Assembly (NCBI RefSeq): GCF_046119375.1
Contig: NW_027362772.1
Span: 65,906,001-65,970,000, forward strand
Origin: Phyllobates terribilis
Lineage: Eukaryota
Direction of reading: 5' to 3'
DNA length: 64,000 nt
The notes below the pieces were generated by a model. It made no database searches. It saw nothing but the letters and a program-made list of their open reading frames with translations, and was not told the origin of the DNA. Of the stretch, positions 12,931 through 60,722 are shown one piece after another (position 1 is the stretch's first letter; the number at the start of each line of letters is the position of its first letter). The position numbers were made by a program, and so were the translations under genes.

Positions 12931-13714
12931 TCGACTTTTCAGCTACATGCAAATATGACTTTATCCTCGTTCACAAAATTTTAGAGCATAAACTGCAGAG
13001 GGGCCCACCGGAGGATTCTCTTATGCTCCTGTGGGCCAGTCCAAGCCTGGACCCTACAATCTTAACAAGCTTACAAATTGATTCACTTGTATCTCACTCT
13101 GCATTCTGCTATGTACTGTGATACGTAGTAGCTGTAGAATCTACATTTTTCTATAGCAAAAAGGCATTTTAGCCAAAATGACAAGCATTTAAGAAAAAAA
13201 TTCCCCAAATGAGTCCTTATCTTTTAATTCTTAATTTCAAAGGGTTTATCATGATTTATGAGAGAAGTAGCACCAATAGATGGCACTAAAGAGACAGCTT
13301 TCTTTCTTCTAGAGGAGAGCTAGTTAGCATACCTATTCTCCCAGAGATAATTGCTTGCCCAACAAGATTTAAAGCCGATGTAATCTGTCAGATTCTAATG
13401 CTAACCACCCATTGTTTGTAATAATTGTGTGATGTGAATTGATTAAACGACTAAACGGTGTTTCCAAAAATGCTCGTTCTTTGTGCATGGTGTCTAAGGG
13501 GTAACATTCTCCTTGTGGAGAGTGACAAGCCAAGCCTGGCATGTCAGAGTGAGGAGACTTATAAGCCATGCATTCTCCTTTAAGAAATTAAATATGTAAA
13601 TTATCTCTTCAGAGAAGAAGAGAACTAGAACTCTAGTCCCACCTATTGGAAGCAGCGATCCTAAAAGTCAATATCGACTCTTTAACGAGCCTGGCAATAT
13701 GACATAGGAAAAAA

Positions 13715-13795
13715 GCCAAACCAGAATTTCAATTTGCAGACACGATGTTTCGGGTGTTGCCCTTCATCAGTGCAAAGTATGAGATCTGATTTGGC
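13715..13795 (-). ncRNA. Type I hammerhead ribozyme motif, copy 1 (core intact)
   Basis: UUUGCA-CUGAUGA-A-GGG CAACA CCC-GAA-ACA UCG UGU-C-UGCAAA; GUC cleavage predicted between 13739 and 13738; stem I extends through an internal loop to GCCAAA/UUUGGC. Confidence 0.85.
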
Positions 13796-14060
13796 TCAGT
13801 GAGAGGCTCTGGACTGGGGTATAAGGGGTAACGTTTCTCCTTATAGAGAGTAACAAGCCAAGCCTGGCTTTTCAGAGTGAGGAGACTTATAATCCATGCA
13901 TTCTCCTTTGGGAAATTAGATATGCAAATTGTCCCTTCAGAGAAGAAGAGGACTAAAACTCTAGCGCCACCTATTGGAAGCAGCGATCCTAAAATTCAAT
14001 ATTGACTCTTTAACGAGCCTTGCAATATGACGTAGGAAAAAAGCCAAACCAGAATCTATA

Positions 14061-14105
14061 TTTGTAGACATGGTGTTTCGGTGTGTTGCCCCTCGTCACT
14101 GCAAA
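14061..14105 (-). ncRNA. Hammerhead motif copy 2 (C3-to-G, probably inactive)
   Basis: UUUGCA-GUGACGA-GGGG CAACA CACC-GAA-ACA CCA UGU-C-UACAAA. Confidence 0.75.
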
Positions 14106-14897
14106 GTATGAGATCTGATTGGCTAGGTAAGACTCTCTGGACTGGGGTTTAAGGGATAACTTTTCTCCTTATGGAGTGACAAGCCATGTCTGTCATGTCA
14201 AAGTGAGGAGACTTATAAGCCATGCATTCTCCTTTTTGGAAATTAAATATGCAAACTGCGTTCTTTGTGCATAAAATCATTTAGGGGAGCAAAAAAGTTC
14301 TCGTTCAAGTTTCAAAAAATTCTGTAATGTAAATGGCAGTTGTTTGCTCGGTCAACGCTTTGACTGACAAAAACGAGGAGTGGAAATTCAAGTCCTAAAT
14401 ATGATTGTTTGTATTCCAAGGCAATAGTTCAGTTTCAGTTAAAGCATTGGAACGAGCACCATATTCGCAGATGGAGCGAGAACATATTCGTAAATAGCTA
14501 AAAAAAAAATTTGCTTTGTGCATTCAATTAAATATTCTTTGTAGAATATTAATGGAAAAAGTTTGTATAATACTTTATGAATTCATGCATTCAAAACAGT
14601 TAGTATCACTTATGGGATTTGAACTTTGAAAACATCTACATTTCAGTGTCTGTGTGATCACAATGCTTGATGGTACGATATAATGATCGTTCTTTAATCA
14701 TTCATTCTTGATTCTCATACTATCTAAACACTAGTCTGACATTGTTTACTGGTCGTGGTCAAATCGTTCACCATCTAATCGATTATCTGCTCGTGTAAAT
14801 GAACCCTTACTATGCAAAGAGAGATGGCAGTCTCCACAAGGAAAATATTACCCCCCAAAGCAGACAATCCATATGTCTGTTATAAAAATAACAACTT

Positions 14898-21850: not shown

Positions 21851-22484
21851 GGAAGGCACGCCAATGTCGGGCATGGCGTGACGTGCAAGCTAATGTCATC
21901 TACCGGCTTATCATTGGCCGGGAACGTGTATTGCAGGGCAGAGAACAATGTTGCAACCATTGTTATCTATATTTCTCTGATGATAGTAAATTATCTGGTC
22001 AAATGGTCACAAATACATACAGGTACACACAGACAGTTTACTCTTATCCAAAATAAGGTAGACTTTAAGTTCTGCCCCAGTTTAGCCCAGGAACATCTAT
22101 TTTCATGCAAATGTGAATAAACCTTGCCCCTGAGGTTTGCAGGACAATTCCAACAAAAAAGGGACAGTCGTTACCCACATAGTTATATTCCAGTGACTTT
22201 TATGCAAATTACATTACATATCATACCGGATGAATATACTAAATATACTAAGGAGGGAAAATATAAAAACAGGCCATGAGTTGTCTACAAGAACAAACTC
22301 CTTATTCTTTGACTTTATAATTGCCTGGGAGAAAAGAGTTGAAAATCATAAAATGTGTATATTTTAATTAAAACATATAAGGTAAAATGAATTAAAATAG
22401 AGAAAGCATGAACTGATGCCTATGGCAAACAATATGATTCTAGACCTTCATAAAGACTCCTTTTTTTTGTATTTTCTGTTGTAG

Positions 22485-22811
22485 GCTTAGTGACTCCAGT
22501 CATTTCTATGGAGCAGGTGGATGGGATGTTGGGACATTCTGTGGATTTCAAAATTCCCATTACCTTACCTTCTCAGTACAGAATAGACTGGAATTGTGGA
22601 CACACCGGGAAAGTTATTGTAATTGCGAGACTGACGTCTAGTGGATCTCCGCAGTACAATCCTCTCTATAAAGGAAGGACTGAGCTGATGGAAAATGGGA
22701 CTTTGAGACTGAACAACGTCTCCTTTGCTGATGAGAGCACGTATAAAACAAAAGTGTTCAATCCCGTAACGTTCAATTCCTACGTTCAACGCTATCAGTT
22801 GACCATCTACT
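22485..22811 (+). CDS. Gene 2 N-terminal IgV-like exon lacking the canonical disulfide
   Basis: GTTGTAG acceptor, GTAAGT donor, 327 nt; YKGRTELMENGTLRLNNVSFADESTY. Confidence 0.92.
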
Positions 22812-23630
22812 GTAAGTATTTATTTTACTCTAGTTTTAACTCAATCAAATCTCTAAACATGTACGTTGGCCCCGGGGCTAGCCGAAAATGTCTCTATGTT
22901 TGGATGTTCCATAAGCGGTCAACATGGTTGGAGGAAATACTCTTCATTGCAGGGGCCCAAGTTTGATGACAGATTTGTCTGATATATTTTGTTTTCAAAC
23001 ACATTGTGAGGGATTCTAGAGCTAATGGTGGGTGGTCTGCCATTTATAGGCCCCTTCAATTAGCTGGAGAACAAAGCAGCCATAAGGAGGATCTCTAACT
23101 TAAAGCATGTGTTCTTCTCTGTTCACTTCTGAATTGAGAAGCAAGTGGGTCATTCATGACCATCAGGAATTGTCTACCTGTCCCAATTATTAGAATAGGA
23201 CAGGAGCACAACACCGACCAATCGTGAACCGGCCCAGCAGATATCAGTAGACATATCGTCACTGGTCCCACTCACTTCTCAATGCGGAATTGACAAGACC
23301 GACTACATCTGGGCAATATCTAGACAGTCCATTGATTTCAATAAGTGCCATGTAATTCTCTATTTGCCCTCTGGAGGCACTGCAGAAATATGAAATACTT
23401 GCTGCTGAATTTTTATGTAGATCAAAGGTAATGGCTAAGAGTCCATGCAACAGGACACCATGGAGGGCATCTTTGAGGAAAAAAGAAAATATTGCAAAGT
23501 AGATGACCCAATCAAGTGCAGTTACATTGGCTTTTGACTATAAAATAAAGGGCTTTTTAGAAAAGGTTAGTTTAATTTTACTTTTGTTCTATCTTGTTCT
23601 CAGCCACATTTATGTATTTTTTTTATCTAG

Positions 23631-30931: not shown

Positions 30932-33126
30932 ATGAAGACCAAGGAACACACCAGGCAGGTCCAAGATACTGTTGTGGCGAAGTTTAAAGCCGGATTTGGA
31001 TACAAAAGATTTCCAAAGTTTTAAACATCTCAAGGAGCACTGTGCAAGCGATCATATTGAAATGGAAGGAGTATCAGACCACTGTAAATCTACCAAGACC
31101 CGGCCGTCCCTCTAAACTTTCATGTCGAACAAGGAGAAGACTGATCAGATATGAAGCCAAAAGGCCCATGATCACTCTGGATTAACTGCAGAGATCTACA
31201 GCTGAGGTGGGAGAGTCTGTCCATAGGACAACAATCAGTCGTACACTGCACAAATCTGGCCTTTATGGAAGAGAGGCAAGAAGAAAGCCATTTCTCAAAG
31301 ATATCCATAAAAAGTCTCGTTTGAAGTTTGCCACAAGCCACCTGGGAGACACACCAAACATGTGGAATAAGGTCCTCTGGTCAGATGCTTTACGATATGT
31401 TTGGCGTAAAAGCAACACAGCTCATCACGCTCAATACACCATCCCCACTGTCAAACATGGTGGCAGCATCATGGTTTGGGCCTGCTTTTCTCCAGCAGGG
31501 ACAGGGAAGATGGTTAAAATTGATGGGAAGATGGACGGAGCCAAATACAGGACCATTCTGGAAGAAAACCTGTTGGAGTCTGCAAAAGACCTGAGACTGG
31601 GACGGAGATTTATCTTCCAACAAGACAATGATCCCAAACATAAAGCAAAATCTACAATGGAATAGTTAAAAAATAAACGTATCCAGGTGTTAGAATGGCC
31701 AAGTCAAAGTCCAAACCTGAATCCAATCGAGAATCTGTGGAAAGAGCTGAAAACTGCTGTTCACAAACGCTCTCCATCCAACCTCAATGAGCTTGAGCTG
31801 CTTTGCAAGGAAGAATGGGCAAGAATTTCAGCCTCTCGATGTGCAAAACTGATAGAGACAAATGTAGCACCCTGAGGATTCGGCTGCTACAGGGGTATTG
31901 CACCTCAACCCAGAGGTGTGATATTCCACTCCCGGGTAAGGAAGGAGTGTGGAACTGAGCTCAGATAGACTGCATGCACTACATACATCCCATTCCAGAG
32001 GAGCAGGCCGACGGTACTCCCACTTAGAAATGTGCAGGTACAACCGAGCCTGTTCCTGGCTGGAGTGGGAGGGGGGTGGTACATCCCATGTAGTGTAGGG
32101 GCAGATAGGGGGAGCAGTCTGGGTAGTGATAGGAGCTCATTGGGTGCTGGTCACCTGAGCTCACACATAGAGGGATATATAAGGAGGGCACCAACTTAGA
32201 TCAGGGTCAGACGCTGAGAACAAGTCAGTTGGAGAGGAGGGAGAAGGAAACAGCAGCCCTGGAGAGAGAGAGAGGAGAAAGAAAAGAGAAAGACCCAGAG
32301 GGGGAAGACTGAAGGGACCCAAGAACCCAAATTAGAGCACCGGGTGAGGAGTCAGCAAGAGGGTACCGGAACCCAAGCTGGTGGGGGCAAAGACATTCCC
32401 CAGCCAGAGACCGGAGACCGTGGGCAGTGTCTGTCACGGTCACCCACCACATTCACCCCGAAGGCACACCACATGAAGGGTCAGGGAACCCAGGGCCAAG
32501 GGTGTCCCAAAAGAAGGCCCGAGGGAGCTGGACCTAGGTGAATCACTGGTGGGGACGGCTGAAGAAAGGACAGAGGGAGAGCTCAGGGCCACGCTCTGGA
32601 CTTGTTTGGGGGTTGGCCGGATCCAGGACCTGGTGGACGCAGCACGGCTCGGGTGGTCACTAGCAGCTGGAGTGACCAGTACAACATCAGCAGTAAGTAA
32701 ACACCCTTAACTGCACAACCCGAGTCTGTCTTCATTGCCGGCTGCATCGCACCACCACAACCCCCATCCTCTGCGCCTGTCCCCTCTGAGGCTATACCCC
32801 TCCCGTTGGGGGTTATCTCACCAAGCTGCGCACCCACCATCAGCCTCAGCGGACCCTGCTGCAGCGGCGGCCACAGTGACCGCATCACAACGAGTGGCGT
32901 AGTCGACACAAAAGAACTTTAGCAACATCTGTAGAACTGCCACATCACACTGAGCTTGACGCCCTGGGCACGGGACCGGGTCACAGCCGCTCGGAGACTA
33001 CAACCCCCCATCTGATCCGGTGCCGGGTATTCCCCTCAAAAAGGAATATGTCCCAGGGGGCGCGTCACATACCCCAAGCGACTTGCAGCTGTAATCGCCG
33101 CAAAAGGTGGTGCTACAAAGTATTAA
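30932..33126 (+). pseudogene. Tc1 DD34E transposase pseudogene
   Basis: MKTKEH start, [29 protein letters not shown]; frameshifts, stop at ~31663, interrupted by an LTR at 31863. Confidence 0.9.
31863..33069 (+). mobile_element. Solo LTR, family B, inserted in the Tc1 transposase
   Basis: TGTAGCACCCTG...GGCGCGTCACA; Tc1 sequence GAGACA|TACCCCAAG resumes after it; TATATAA at ~32176; TSD not clean. Confidence 0.75.
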
Positions 33127-44220: not shown

Positions 44221-44795
44221 GATAATTCCCTTTAGCCCTCATGCATTTATGTCAGAGAAAAAAGAGGCAACAATGTACAGTATATTAGACAAACCCCTCT
44301 AACAGTGGATGAACATTTCTAAAAGATCTGAAGATTTCTGAAAAAATTCTAGTAATTCCAGTGTTGCTGTATCAAAATATATGGAAATTGGTGCAACTGT
44401 CGCTAGTCACTACTGGGTATTACCTAGCACCAGGATTGCTAAACTTGAGAATCAGGTGGGCTAAGGATACTTTCTAACGTCTGACATCTGAAAGATGGAC
44501 TTCCCCTTTAAGAACAAAAAACAAGGCATGATACATATTTATTAGTCATCTGTCTACTGGATTAAGGTTCTGTAATATTTGTTCTTCGTATATAAACCTT
44601 AATCCGGGGTTAAAACTGATTCATAAGAGCAAAGAGGATTTCTATTTGAAACTTGAAATGTCAAGGGAAATCACCTGTTACATTCCAAGATGTTCTCTTA
44701 CACTCCCTTTACAACTCCTGGGGCCAAGTTTTTGTGTCATTGTATATACAGGACATTTATAGAAAGGGAGCTATTCCAAGAGCGCTTTATAGATT

Positions 44796-44970
44796 GCCAA
44801 ATCAGATCTTCTGCTTTGTACTGATGAGGGGCAAAAACCCTACAAGACGTATTTGAAAATAGTGTCTAGTTTGGCTTTAATTCTAAGATATGTAGCAAGG
44901 CTTGTTAAAGGGTCGATATTGACTTTTAGGATCGCTACTTTCTATAGGAGTTCTTGTTCTCTTCCTCTCT
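44796..44970 (+). mobile_element. Decayed partial retrozyme unit
   Basis: GCCAAATCAGATCT..CTTTGTA-CTGATGA-GGGG CAAAA ACCC (GAAA lost), then GCTTGTTAAAGGGTCGATATTGACTTTTAGGATCGCTACTT matching the other units. Confidence 0.75.
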
Positions 44971-45016
44971 GCACAAACTATTTACATCATCTGTGAATGG
45001 AATGGCAGATCTTCAC

Positions 45017-46371: not shown

Positions 46372-47185
46372 CTGTAACTAATACACAAAAGTCAAACACA
46401 TTAGAAATATTATGGGATACAAAGAATTGTCCAAAATTGTTCTGCTCTCATCGGTCAACTTTTGGCTTTTAGGGCAACCACAGTCTAATGTTTATTGAAG
46501 GCTCCCTAATCTCACGCAACAAATGATGCCAGGGTTAGGTTTCCAATTTTCCAATCGTTTGGCCGACATTAATTTGTATGGGGGACTTTATTGTACCGAT
46601 TTTTTTTCTTATATTTTTCTCAATTTTTTTATTTTTATTGGCACTTTTTCACTGAAATGTACTGATATCTATTTATATTTCTGAATTATTGTACCAATTT
46701 TTTTATTTGTAATTCTAATATTAGTTTTTGGAGCAGAAACTGAGCAGAAACTAAGCAGAAATTTTCCAAAACTCCTCCTTATCTCAAAACTTCTCAAAAA
46801 CGTTGAGTTTCCGCCCAGTTTTTGCTCTAAAAACTTAGCAAAAACACTCAGTGTGCACGTCGCCTAAGGCTCTGTGCACACATCGCGTTTATGCCTCGTT
46901 CTTCCTTTGTTTTTTATCTGTTTTTGCTGTAAAAAAAACAGCATTTTACTGTCTCAGCAAAGTTTACGTTTTTCAGTGAAAGCTGCTGGCCAACAAAAGA
47001 ATGACAGCAAGCCCACCAGTGCACCAAACAGGTTTTTTGACAGAATATTTACGTCATCAGAGCAATCAAATGGTAAGTGCTACTGCTTTTTTTCAAATGC
47101 AGTATTCCCATGGGAGTAGTATAAATCTGGATGCAGTCATGGTTGCAGGTAGTATGCAATGGAAAAAAATGATAATATCTCTCAC

Positions 47186-47482
47186 CTTGTGACACATCAA
47201 GTTTAAACATGAAGCTTGTACTCCCGATAGCAGTCTTAGCAACGCACTCATATGTCCCTTTCTCATTAGAAGTCACTTCAGAGATATGAAGATTGGAAAT
47301 AGAACCGTTAGACTCAATTTTGTATTTCCCTCCCGTTATGAGAGGGACAGAGTCTGGATTATGATGGAACCATGAAAACTGAGCATAAAATCCAGATTGC
47401 AGATTGAGTGTCAGGACTGTGGCCTCTCCTTGCTTCACTGAGGTTATAGTATTGTTTATGTTATCCGTAGACAGTGGTCGTT
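47186..47482 (-). CDS. Gene 3 Ig exon e (ERPLSTDN...AQFSWF...ISNLHISEVTSNEKGTYEC...LDVSQ)
   Basis: TCAACAG acceptor, GTGAGA donor, 297 nt; B-strand Cys replaced (VLTL). Confidence 0.9.
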
Positions 47483-47559
47483 CTGTTGAAAAAGCAAAAA
47501 GTAATTGTAGTAAATACCTTTCTATTACCATAAATTCAAGGCAGATGTATCATAAAAAA

Positions 47560-58580: not shown

Positions 58581-60296
58581 TACGTATTGTGCTTGGAAAT
58601 TACATGGATCTTGGTGTTTTGCTTGTATTCTGAATCCTGATATAGATTCGGTTTGTGCCCTGACTTCTTCATATTCTGTAATTGTCCTCTATCCTGAAAG
58701 AGGCCTGTTTGACAACATTCTGACTGACTACATGGTATCTAACCCAGACTATTAATCAGATTTTGGCTTTGGTTTTCTGATTCTCGCCTTGTTTTGTCAC
58801 TCCAATTACTGATCTTTCTAGCTAGACTACTGTTGCCTCCAGCTTGCTCCTCCGGCCAGCAGTCACTCTGTGAAAGCTAACCAGGGGACCATGTTGAAGT
58901 CCAAATCCCTGTATAAAGCAAAAATGGTGATGGAGACATTTACTCTCGGATATCCCAGTCTGAGTGACTAATGCCAAGTCAGTCCCTTTGGAGGTAATGG
59001 CCTCTGACAGACTTTACACTAATATTAAAAAATATGTTTGTAATGTTGGTGGGTAGTGATCCTCCAGGCTTACCCTGGAGGGGCATGACTAAGCAACTAC
59101 CTGGTGTTCACTGAAGCCTTTGGTGGTGAGGTTAGGCTTGGGGGCAGGTAGTCGCCAGGTGCCACTTAAGGGCAGCACCTGAGGCTGCGGCAGCTGACCG
59201 AAGTGTCATAGGCTCATGTACGTGGTAAGGTGGTGCAAGACAGATGTGAAGTCATATGGTCCGAGGTCGGGGCAGGCAGCACAGGATCAGAAAACGTAAC
59301 CGAGGTCAGAAGGAGAAATTTCATGCAGGACGGCTAAACAGGCCAGGTCCTAAATGGTAAGCTGGATACAGATGGTTGCATGCACAAAGACTGACAAAGC
59401 AGAAACCATGTTCGAGCAAGGAATGGTGGGTGGAGATGCCTAAAATAGGCCCTACTGGCAGAAGATAGGCCGGGGAACCAAATCTCTGCAGGACACAGCA
59501 GGGTTAAATTCCCGCATAGACCAGCTACGTCCCCTAGGGCCAGATGGATTCACATGCAGCAGCTACACAAAGTAGCACCTGAAGAAACCAATTCAGCCAC
59601 ATGGCTTGCCATGAGGAGACACCACACAGTGAGGAGGGGGGGCGATAAGTGTACACGCTAGTTGCCGCCATGACAATGTTTTATTAAAAAAAATAACAAC
59701 TGAATTGAGAGGAATCTCCTCCATATCATACATAATAACTAGAGCTAATGCCAGCACACCACAATTAAAATGGTGGATAGAAGCCAGATTATTTGGTCTA
59801 AAAAGCAAGTCATACATAATATAAGAGGAAGTAGAAGAACATTATTATATGTCGGAGAAACTAGGAGGTGGCGGGCATGATTTCATATATCCACTGGAGT
59901 TTTCGTTGACGGCAATTCCAACTCTCTTATGCCCCGGATGTGTCCTTCATAGAGCCAGTTGGTTCAATGCAACTTGAATTCAGTGTTCTAGAAATATATA
60001 TTTATTGAAATATTTAAAATATATTTTATAGAATTAAACTTTATGAAATTCAAAGGTCCAAAAATGTACAATTTGATTTGCATAAATTGAAAAAAAAAAT
60101 ACCTGCCATCATTTTACAAGTTACAGAAGATTTTATCAGCCACAGAAGGTTTAGATGACCTCAGGCATGGCTGCATGGGCTTCTCCATAATGCCTTGCAT
60201 CTATTACATTGTATAGTGCAGCCAATCAGGATGGACTATCATAGCCTGTTCAAAAGCCTTGGTAGGGAATGCAGCAGTCATCTTAAGAGTTAAAGG

Positions 60297-60722
60297 GCTT
60301 GTTAAAGGGTTGATAATGACTTGTAGGATTGCTACTTCCAATAGGTGGCACTAGAATTCTAGTCCTCTTCCTCTCCGAAGAGACAATTTGCATATTTAAC
60401 TTCCCAGAGGAGCATGCAAGGCGTTTATCCACGTACTGGCATGCCAGACCTGGCATGCCACTGTCCATAAGGAGAAACCTTACCTCTTAGGTCCCAGTCT
60501 TAGCATCTCACCCAGCCAAATCAGATCTCATACTTTGTACTGACGATCGGCAATACCCCGAAACAGCGTGTCTACAAATTGAGATTCTGATTTGGATTTT
60601 ATCCTAAGTCATATTTCAAAGCTTGTTAAAGGGTTGGTAATGACTTGTAGGGTTGCTACTTCCAATAGGTAGCACTTGAGTTCAAGTCCTCTTCTTCTCT
60701 GAAGAGACAATTTGCATATTCA
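60297..60722 (+). mobile_element. Retrozyme-like insertion, ~1.3 units (period 324)
   Basis: GCTTGTTAAAGGGTT at 60297 and 60621; homologous to the reverse complement of 13489-14258; possible TTAAGAGT flank duplication (60283, 60724). Confidence 0.82.
60515..60596 (+). ncRNA. Type I hammerhead motif, copy 3 (stem II damaged)
   Basis: UCAGAUCUCA-UAC-UUUGUA-CUGACGA-UCGG CAAUA CCCC-GAA-ACA GCG UGU-C-UACAAA-U-UGAGA-U-UCUGA; predicted cut after 60572. Confidence 0.8.

Follow-up and report, generated by a model that had tools for sequence, protein, structure and literature searches.

The element described here occupies 770 bp on the minus strand of the window (the whole 64,000-nt stretch analyzed), at 13489..14258. 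A repeat scan of the window returned a tandem at 13488-14255 with a period of 328, 2.3 copies, and 87% matches, in agreement with the tandem unit of ~328 bp proposed in a preliminary description; the bounds given there coincide exactly with those of an insertion, which is flanked by a perfect 14-bp target-site duplication (TSD) at 13475..13488 (left copy) and 14259..14272 (right copy, both plus strand). With unit positions counted from the predicted hammerhead cut, the insertion runs from position 136 at its 5′ end to ~251 (site B, below) at its 3′ end, for 2.3 units in all: a 5′ partial unit (14067..14258, minus strand; positions 136-328; 88% identity to the family majority), a nominal cut-to-cut monomer (13739..14066, minus strand; 93%), and a 3′ partial unit (13489..13738, minus strand; positions 1 to ~251) that runs past site A and stops at site B. 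Residue N17 falls at 13739 and 14067, giving the 328-nt monomer claimed earlier.

The insertion has split an older, unrelated interspersed repeat (13381..14560), whose remains flank it at ~13381-13474 and ~14273-14560. Seven paralogues of this host repeat were fetched. In four (L032, L033, L034, L038) the flanks adjoin and the 14 bp are present once; another (L035) comes close to this empty-site arrangement; and the retrozyme unit is found in none of the seven. The anatomy is thus that of an insertion at staggered nicks. No ORF of at least 150 aa was found over 13489-14258, and no PLE (Penelope-like element) protein match within the 64-kb window, as would be expected of a non-autonomous element. 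The pieces of the insertion have four variants in common, each of them rare elsewhere in the family.

Two other family members are present in the window, both on the plus strand: a decayed copy of 1.3 units with a broken core, its 3′ end at site A (60296..60720; position 148), and a more decayed fragment ending near site A (44786..44987). Elsewhere in the window, open frames at 22454-22963 (plus strand) and 47052-47549 (minus strand) contain immunoglobulin V-set and I-set domains and are probably exons of Ig-superfamily genes, and a Tc1/Tc3-type transposase fragment lies at 31186-31662 (plus strand).

Hammerhead motifs at the window locus

Hammerhead copy 1 (13715..13795, minus strand) reads CUGAUGA and GAAA, with a 3-bp stem III, GUC, and a 6-bp stem I with a long extension, and so has everything that defines a type I hammerhead (core CUGANGA, GAAA, UH, stems I–III, stem I open); cleavage is predicted between 13739 and 13738. 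It scores 105.3 bits, not an independent value since the family model was trained partly on this copy. Copy 2 (14043..14124, minus strand; 83.7 bits; nominal cut 14067/14066) lacks the type I core through a C3>G change, with further mismatches in stems II and I, and is presumed dead, the C3G change being reported to abolish cleavage (PMC11167929). The core had been described as present in each unit; this holds for copy 1, but not for copy 2 or for the third, partial unit, which is without a hammerhead. Similarly, the extra A reported after A9 in copy 1 is there, but it arises from G10.1>A together with loss of one C from the 4-bp G/C stem II of the family, leaving 3 bp and an unpaired A. By comparison with other copies it is decay of stem II rather than a family feature. 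With C3>G in the upstream hammerhead and a mutated stem II in copy 1, the locus has only one plausible ribozyme and probably cannot release a monomer.

The 81-nt copy 1 region (13715-13795) folds better than expected (z −4.75), with none of 200 shuffles folding equally well, and a scan for core plus stems matched the window once, at copy 1, and 100 block-shuffled windows not at all. The active core is absent from the minimum-energy fold of copy 1; considering secondary structure only, the active fold lies 7.2 kcal/mol above the ensemble for copy 1 and 4.2 for a young copy. The suggested Rfam search did not bear out the motif: there was no hammerhead match in the window at the gathering threshold, nor on 13300-14500 at E ≤ 10, and an intact relative reached 15.1 bits on RAGATH-1-hammerhead, below the cut-off of 56.3. 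A search of the genome with RF00163 was blank, with an uninformative control. A match to whalefall-1 (21.9 bits, cut-off 37) was taken as chance.

Copy number, subfamilies and conservation

Querying the genome with the unit yielded 6,734 candidates, the best other copies among the 40 scored being 85–90% identical. Exact matches number 5,562 for a pattern of core plus stem I, 700 for core plus stem II, 4,183 for a mid-unit 19-mer, and 513 for one 40-nt young hammerhead, with no match to the reversed control in any case. The family has the structural properties of a non-LTR retrozyme, a class established in axolotl and newts (PMC7229834): a tandem unit within 150–450 bp that carries a single type I hammerhead, absence of coding capacity and of LTR structure, and a TSD (14 bp) longer than 4 bp.

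A younger subfamily with a 332-nt unit includes arrays holding up to six pattern-matching hammerheads (L099). Its units in array L100 (G000:C1:129892849-129893885) are 97–99% alike (two of them 99.4%) and ~82% like the window unit; those in L099 differ by 6–14%, with indels in common. Two consecutive intact motifs, the rule for an “active” locus in a recent preprint (bioRxiv 10.64898/2026.07.22.740005), occur in both of these arrays and not at the window locus. An older subfamily, ~75% identical to the unit and with a different loop 2, was seen adjoining a younger copy (L008:1-1075).

Among 32 aligned hammerheads, stem II contains one base pair (G-C in 15, C-G in 16), and the stem I extension two, in which both partners have changed; these amount to only about three events, in an alignment whose rows were partly picked for an intact core. 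Of the stem positions in the alignment, 92.5% are paired in register, and 19–44% when slid. Of 51 hammerheads in the window subfamily, 15 retain the complete core and 24 retain G12, which lies within a CpG; from its context, loss of G12 reads as CpG decay. Conservation is 96% at core sites outside CpGs and 91.5% elsewhere. Compensatory pairs between subfamilies and a core conserved above its surroundings argue that source copies have maintained the ribozyme, which then degenerates once a copy is inserted. The earlier proposal of a non-coding, hammerhead-bearing mobile family is supported, by copy number, TSDs, the empty site, covariation, and the lack of an ORF.

The repeat is covered, mostly at <95% identity, by contigs from four sequencing runs (three organism codes; that three of the runs are RNA is a guess), with joints going back ~300–330 nt. 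Joints of this kind also arise from genomic tandems and are therefore no evidence of transcription or circles.

Insertion ends and Penelope-like elements

The 3′ ends of family copies are not at the hammerhead cut: 121 of 134 scored fall at site A (~148 nt after it) or site B (~251). The first two samples had 32 at A and 16 at B, of 56 (p 1e-30); the third, picked by a motif outside the hammerhead, had 55 and 18, of 78. No sequence likeness was found between the two sites. The 5′ ends are scattered. Of the 79 copies in the third sample, 55 extend across the cut, 27 are longer than one unit, and 8 longer than two; six start near the cut, which is not a significant pile-up (p 0.26). A TSD was scored at 29 of 57 loci (0–4 with swapped flanks) and at 31 of 79 (0–1 swapped), leaving about half of the copies without one by the score used.

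An inverted 5′ piece is present in 47 of 136 copies (21/57 and 26/79). Both ends were scored in 44 inverted copies: the combination is AB in 20, BA in nine, AA in one, and BB in none (Fisher p 7e-7, using windows of 130-170 for A and 235-265 for B that were chosen after inspection of the data and broadened for this count); the other 14 have one end outside A and B. The two cDNAs of an inverted insertion would accordingly begin at different fixed sites, one per target strand. L1-type twin priming is not known to yield A/B-paired inversions with long overlaps. Before the counts, L016, L022, and L024 were left out of the first samples, L120, L121, L123, L124, L138, L142, and L147 out of the third, and L196 out of the inverted-copy count; the duplicate pairs L139/L186, L193/L196, and L200/L201 stay among the 79.

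Rare variants are common to units of one direct array at 6.5% (31/480), vs. 2.3% between loci. Such sharing is consistent with a single template, be it a circle or a homogenized array, and also with later gene conversion. In one inverted insertion (L193, duplicate L196) both arms are ~307 nt, as if two cDNAs had been made in step; at other loci they are unequal. Two differently built insertions (L136, L170) have their TSD start in common and 87% identical upstream flanks, either because one site in a repeat was used twice or through duplication followed by deletion.

PLE hallmarks (PMC8557442, PMC3846280) include 5′ truncation, partial tandems, inversion of a 5′ copy, and a one-ended tail; all are found in this family, together with TSDs. 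An anole PLE protein, predicted to be a dimer, is reported to cut both strands and to initiate cDNA synthesis at two points within the RNA, which delimit the “tail” (PMC11167929). Sites A and B, the paired inversions, TSDs, 5′ truncation, and partial tandems are best read as the work of a PLE reverse transcriptase/endonuclease (RT/EN).

GIY-YIG PLEs are many in this genome, with a zinc-finger-like linker that assigns them provisionally to the Neptune/Nematis type. In the family of the PLE found at locus L205, copies end either 0 to +21 or −97 to −113 from one junction, the same ~100-nt spacing as between A and B, although the query stopped at the B-like site, so that direct B ends are enriched in this count. 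Six of eight independent inverted insertions of this family pair both ends, and none repeats one end.

L205 itself (L205:1224-8766; G000:C1:170948500-170958499) is a 7.5-kb block within one 12-bp TSD, comprising an inverted retrozyme piece that ends at A, 1.5 copies of a Neptune-type PLE (one truncated, one full but frameshifted), and a retrozyme unit that ends at B. The PLE was identified by tblastn (32% over 421 aa, E 8e-62) and by motifs read by eye; Pfam found neither RT nor GIY-YIG in the three ORF pieces. It lies at unit position 242-246, next to site B and with the inversion junction ~20 nt away, and is joined by a 4–5-nt overlap where a normal TSD would be expected, which favors a template switch in one event; the retrozyme unit resumes on its far side, so that a later nested PLE insertion would also fit. 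From the arrangement of the junctions, a single-event composite of retrozyme and PLE RNA is the somewhat likelier origin.

Further observations on the PLEs of this genome include variant minimal hammerheads in Neptune-type 3′ repeats (L055, L058, L060, L209), with core bases altered as judged by eye; the CUGANGA scan misses these. Across L209-L237, several of them duplicates, many 5′ ends of the L205 PLE family cluster around that family's own variant hammerhead, ~613–660 nt upstream of the B-like end, unlike those of the retrozyme, which do not cluster at the cut. Two further PLE families (L041/L057/L058 and L042/L063/L065) apparently have two 3′ ends ~90 nt apart, the longer one near a splice-donor-like motif. 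The tblastn matches beside L074, L103, L110, L139, and L186 were dropped, as they arose from a non-PLE tail of the query L068.

Mobilization and relation to known systems

The window copy is probably an old insertion, no longer active, whose non-LTR retrozyme family is non-autonomous and mobilized in trans by a PLE, likely of the Neptune clade. In the proposed sequence of events, intact tandems would be transcribed and the multimers cut by their hammerheads to 328–332-nt monomers, which would be ligated to circles; self-cleavage in young arrays and circle ligation are both putative steps. To judge from the insertion anatomy, an endonuclease nicks both target strands, 9–17 nt apart. Reverse transcription, putatively by a Neptune-type RT/EN dimer, would begin inside the RNA at A on one target strand and B on the other. 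As the insertions show, it passes the cut site, often continues beyond one unit, and halts at scattered places. Where both cDNAs are long, an inverted A+B element results; otherwise a direct one, like the window copy. The inserted copies then decay neutrally, as the window copy has done.

On the best reading, the template for the PLE enzymes would be a circular or multimeric retrozyme RNA. A more specific version, in which one RT/EN dimer on a single circular retrozyme RNA nicks both strands and starts cDNAs at A and B, ~100 nt apart, and in which L205 is a single-event retrozyme/Neptune chimera, is offered tentatively, at somewhat less than even odds. If it is true, the genome itself would point directly to the enzyme behind the movement of animal retrozymes, and the one-ended PLE tail would be accounted for as an obligatory asymmetry.

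The same enzymes might instead copy an uncut, linear multimeric transcript, with the hammerhead dispensable for spread and circles uninvolved; the template is then the sole difference from the explanation preferred here. Anole PLE hammerhead mutants are reported to insert normally, with uncut RNA as the main in vitro substrate (PMC11167929), and the divergent L099 units with their common indels look like copies of a mixed array. The stem covariation and core conservation, however, indicate a ribozyme kept in source copies, and the rare variants common to units of one insertion, along with the two nearly identical L100 units, also count against this alternative; exclusive use of a linear template is considered rather unlikely.

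It is improbable that there is no separate retrozyme at all, the unit being the pseudo-LTR (pLTR) of an undiscovered autonomous PLE and its copies 5′-truncated or solo pLTR products. The insertion anatomy is, after all, PLE anatomy, the genome is rich in GIY-YIG PLEs, and 21 PLEs are reported to match Xenopus retrozyme families (bioRxiv 10.64898/2026.07.22.740005). What lies upstream of the units here, though, is another unit or unrelated flank, and pure arrays reach six units. PLE coding sequence is near few of the fetched copies (L117, L133, L195; L067 among GIY-YIG loci), never in pLTR position; the unit occurs in one of 30 GIY-YIG loci, there as a separate inverted insertion; and the native PLE junction in L205 is without it. 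No RT plus GIY-YIG ORF framed by the unit was found in the loci searched, and no parent PLE whose pLTR shows homology to the unit among the 30 GIY-YIG loci (a family model was run over 26 of them). Neither 11 PLE 3′ regions (best p 0.01, for a 48-nt AT-rich match) nor the L205 PLE (p 0.87) aligned convincingly with the unit, so that derivation of the retrozyme family from any PLE seen is not supported by these comparisons.

A satellite-like repeat growing by local unequal crossover, or one moved by a LINE, with the hammerhead as a relic, is most improbable and for the dispersed copies largely refuted by the empty site, TSDs, and 3′ ends: local amplification from a PLE terminus has been proposed (bioRxiv 10.64898/2026.07.22.740005), some arrays are heterogeneous, and G12 is kept in under half of the copies, but loss of G12 is CpG decay, TSD-bounded partial tandems with fixed internal 3′ ends fit neither crossover nor L1-type twin priming, the junctions printed have no poly(A) tail, and crossover does not suit A/B-paired inversions with long overlaps.

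The element class is already published, and the window copy is a fossil, ordinary as a locus. According to the same preprint (bioRxiv 10.64898/2026.07.22.740005), retrozymes are present in all seven amphibian genomes sampled, Xenopus families included, and a PLE origin and PLE-driven mobility are proposed for them from co-occurrence and pLTR homology; only one of nine Xenopus retrozyme dimers cleaved, which tells against the mechanism preferred here. The present family may already be in its supplementary tables. A term search of its main text found no “tail” and no discussion of inverted retrozyme ends, and a literature search, mostly at title and abstract level, turned up no description of retrozymes with fixed A/B ends or paired inversions. 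The present analysis adds the insertion anatomy of the family, a useful mechanistic signature, although the tail at one end is itself long known for PLEs. In the literature examined, the enzyme moving animal retrozymes has hitherto been argued from co-occurrence and terminal homology. The signature described here, two fixed start sites with one per target strand, can be counted in insertions, and the retrozyme has it in common with a Neptune-type element that resides in this genome. Both retrozyme mobilization and the PLE dimer model become directly testable, given young copies and a natural RNA of 332 nt whose start sites are mapped.

Compared with known systems, the family resembles axolotl Rtz_331/Rtz_353 and newt satellite 2 (PMC7229834) in its ~330-bp non-coding tandem unit, GC below 50%, TSD of more than 4 bp, and thousands of copies, and the salamander retrozymes described there also have a type I hammerhead with a 6-bp stem I, 4-bp stem II, and weak stem III. 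Stem III is here 3 bp with a 3-nt non-palindromic loop, in contrast to 1–2 bp and a tetraloop in the salamander type, and copies are mostly dispersed, at 0.3–2.5 units; the likeness noted is one of architecture. Xenopus and other vertebrate retrozymes are similar in unit size (amphibian mean 316 bp) and in occurring as monomers, dimers, and multimers, but some in Xenopus have pLTR homologues (bioRxiv 10.64898/2026.07.22.740005), whereas none was found for this unit.

With the EN+ PLEs Neptune and Poseidon, as described in PMC8557442, PMC3846280, PMC4209133, and PMC11167929, the family has in common partial tandems, 5′ truncation, an inverted 5′ copy, a tail at one end, 8–17-bp TSDs, two internal RT start sites, and a repeat-borne hammerhead. 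It differs from them in being without an RT/GIY-YIG ORF and in its canonical rather than minimal hammerhead. Its tail, at ~100 nt, is longer than the 30–40 nt of these elements, but matches that of the Neptune-type family in the same genome.
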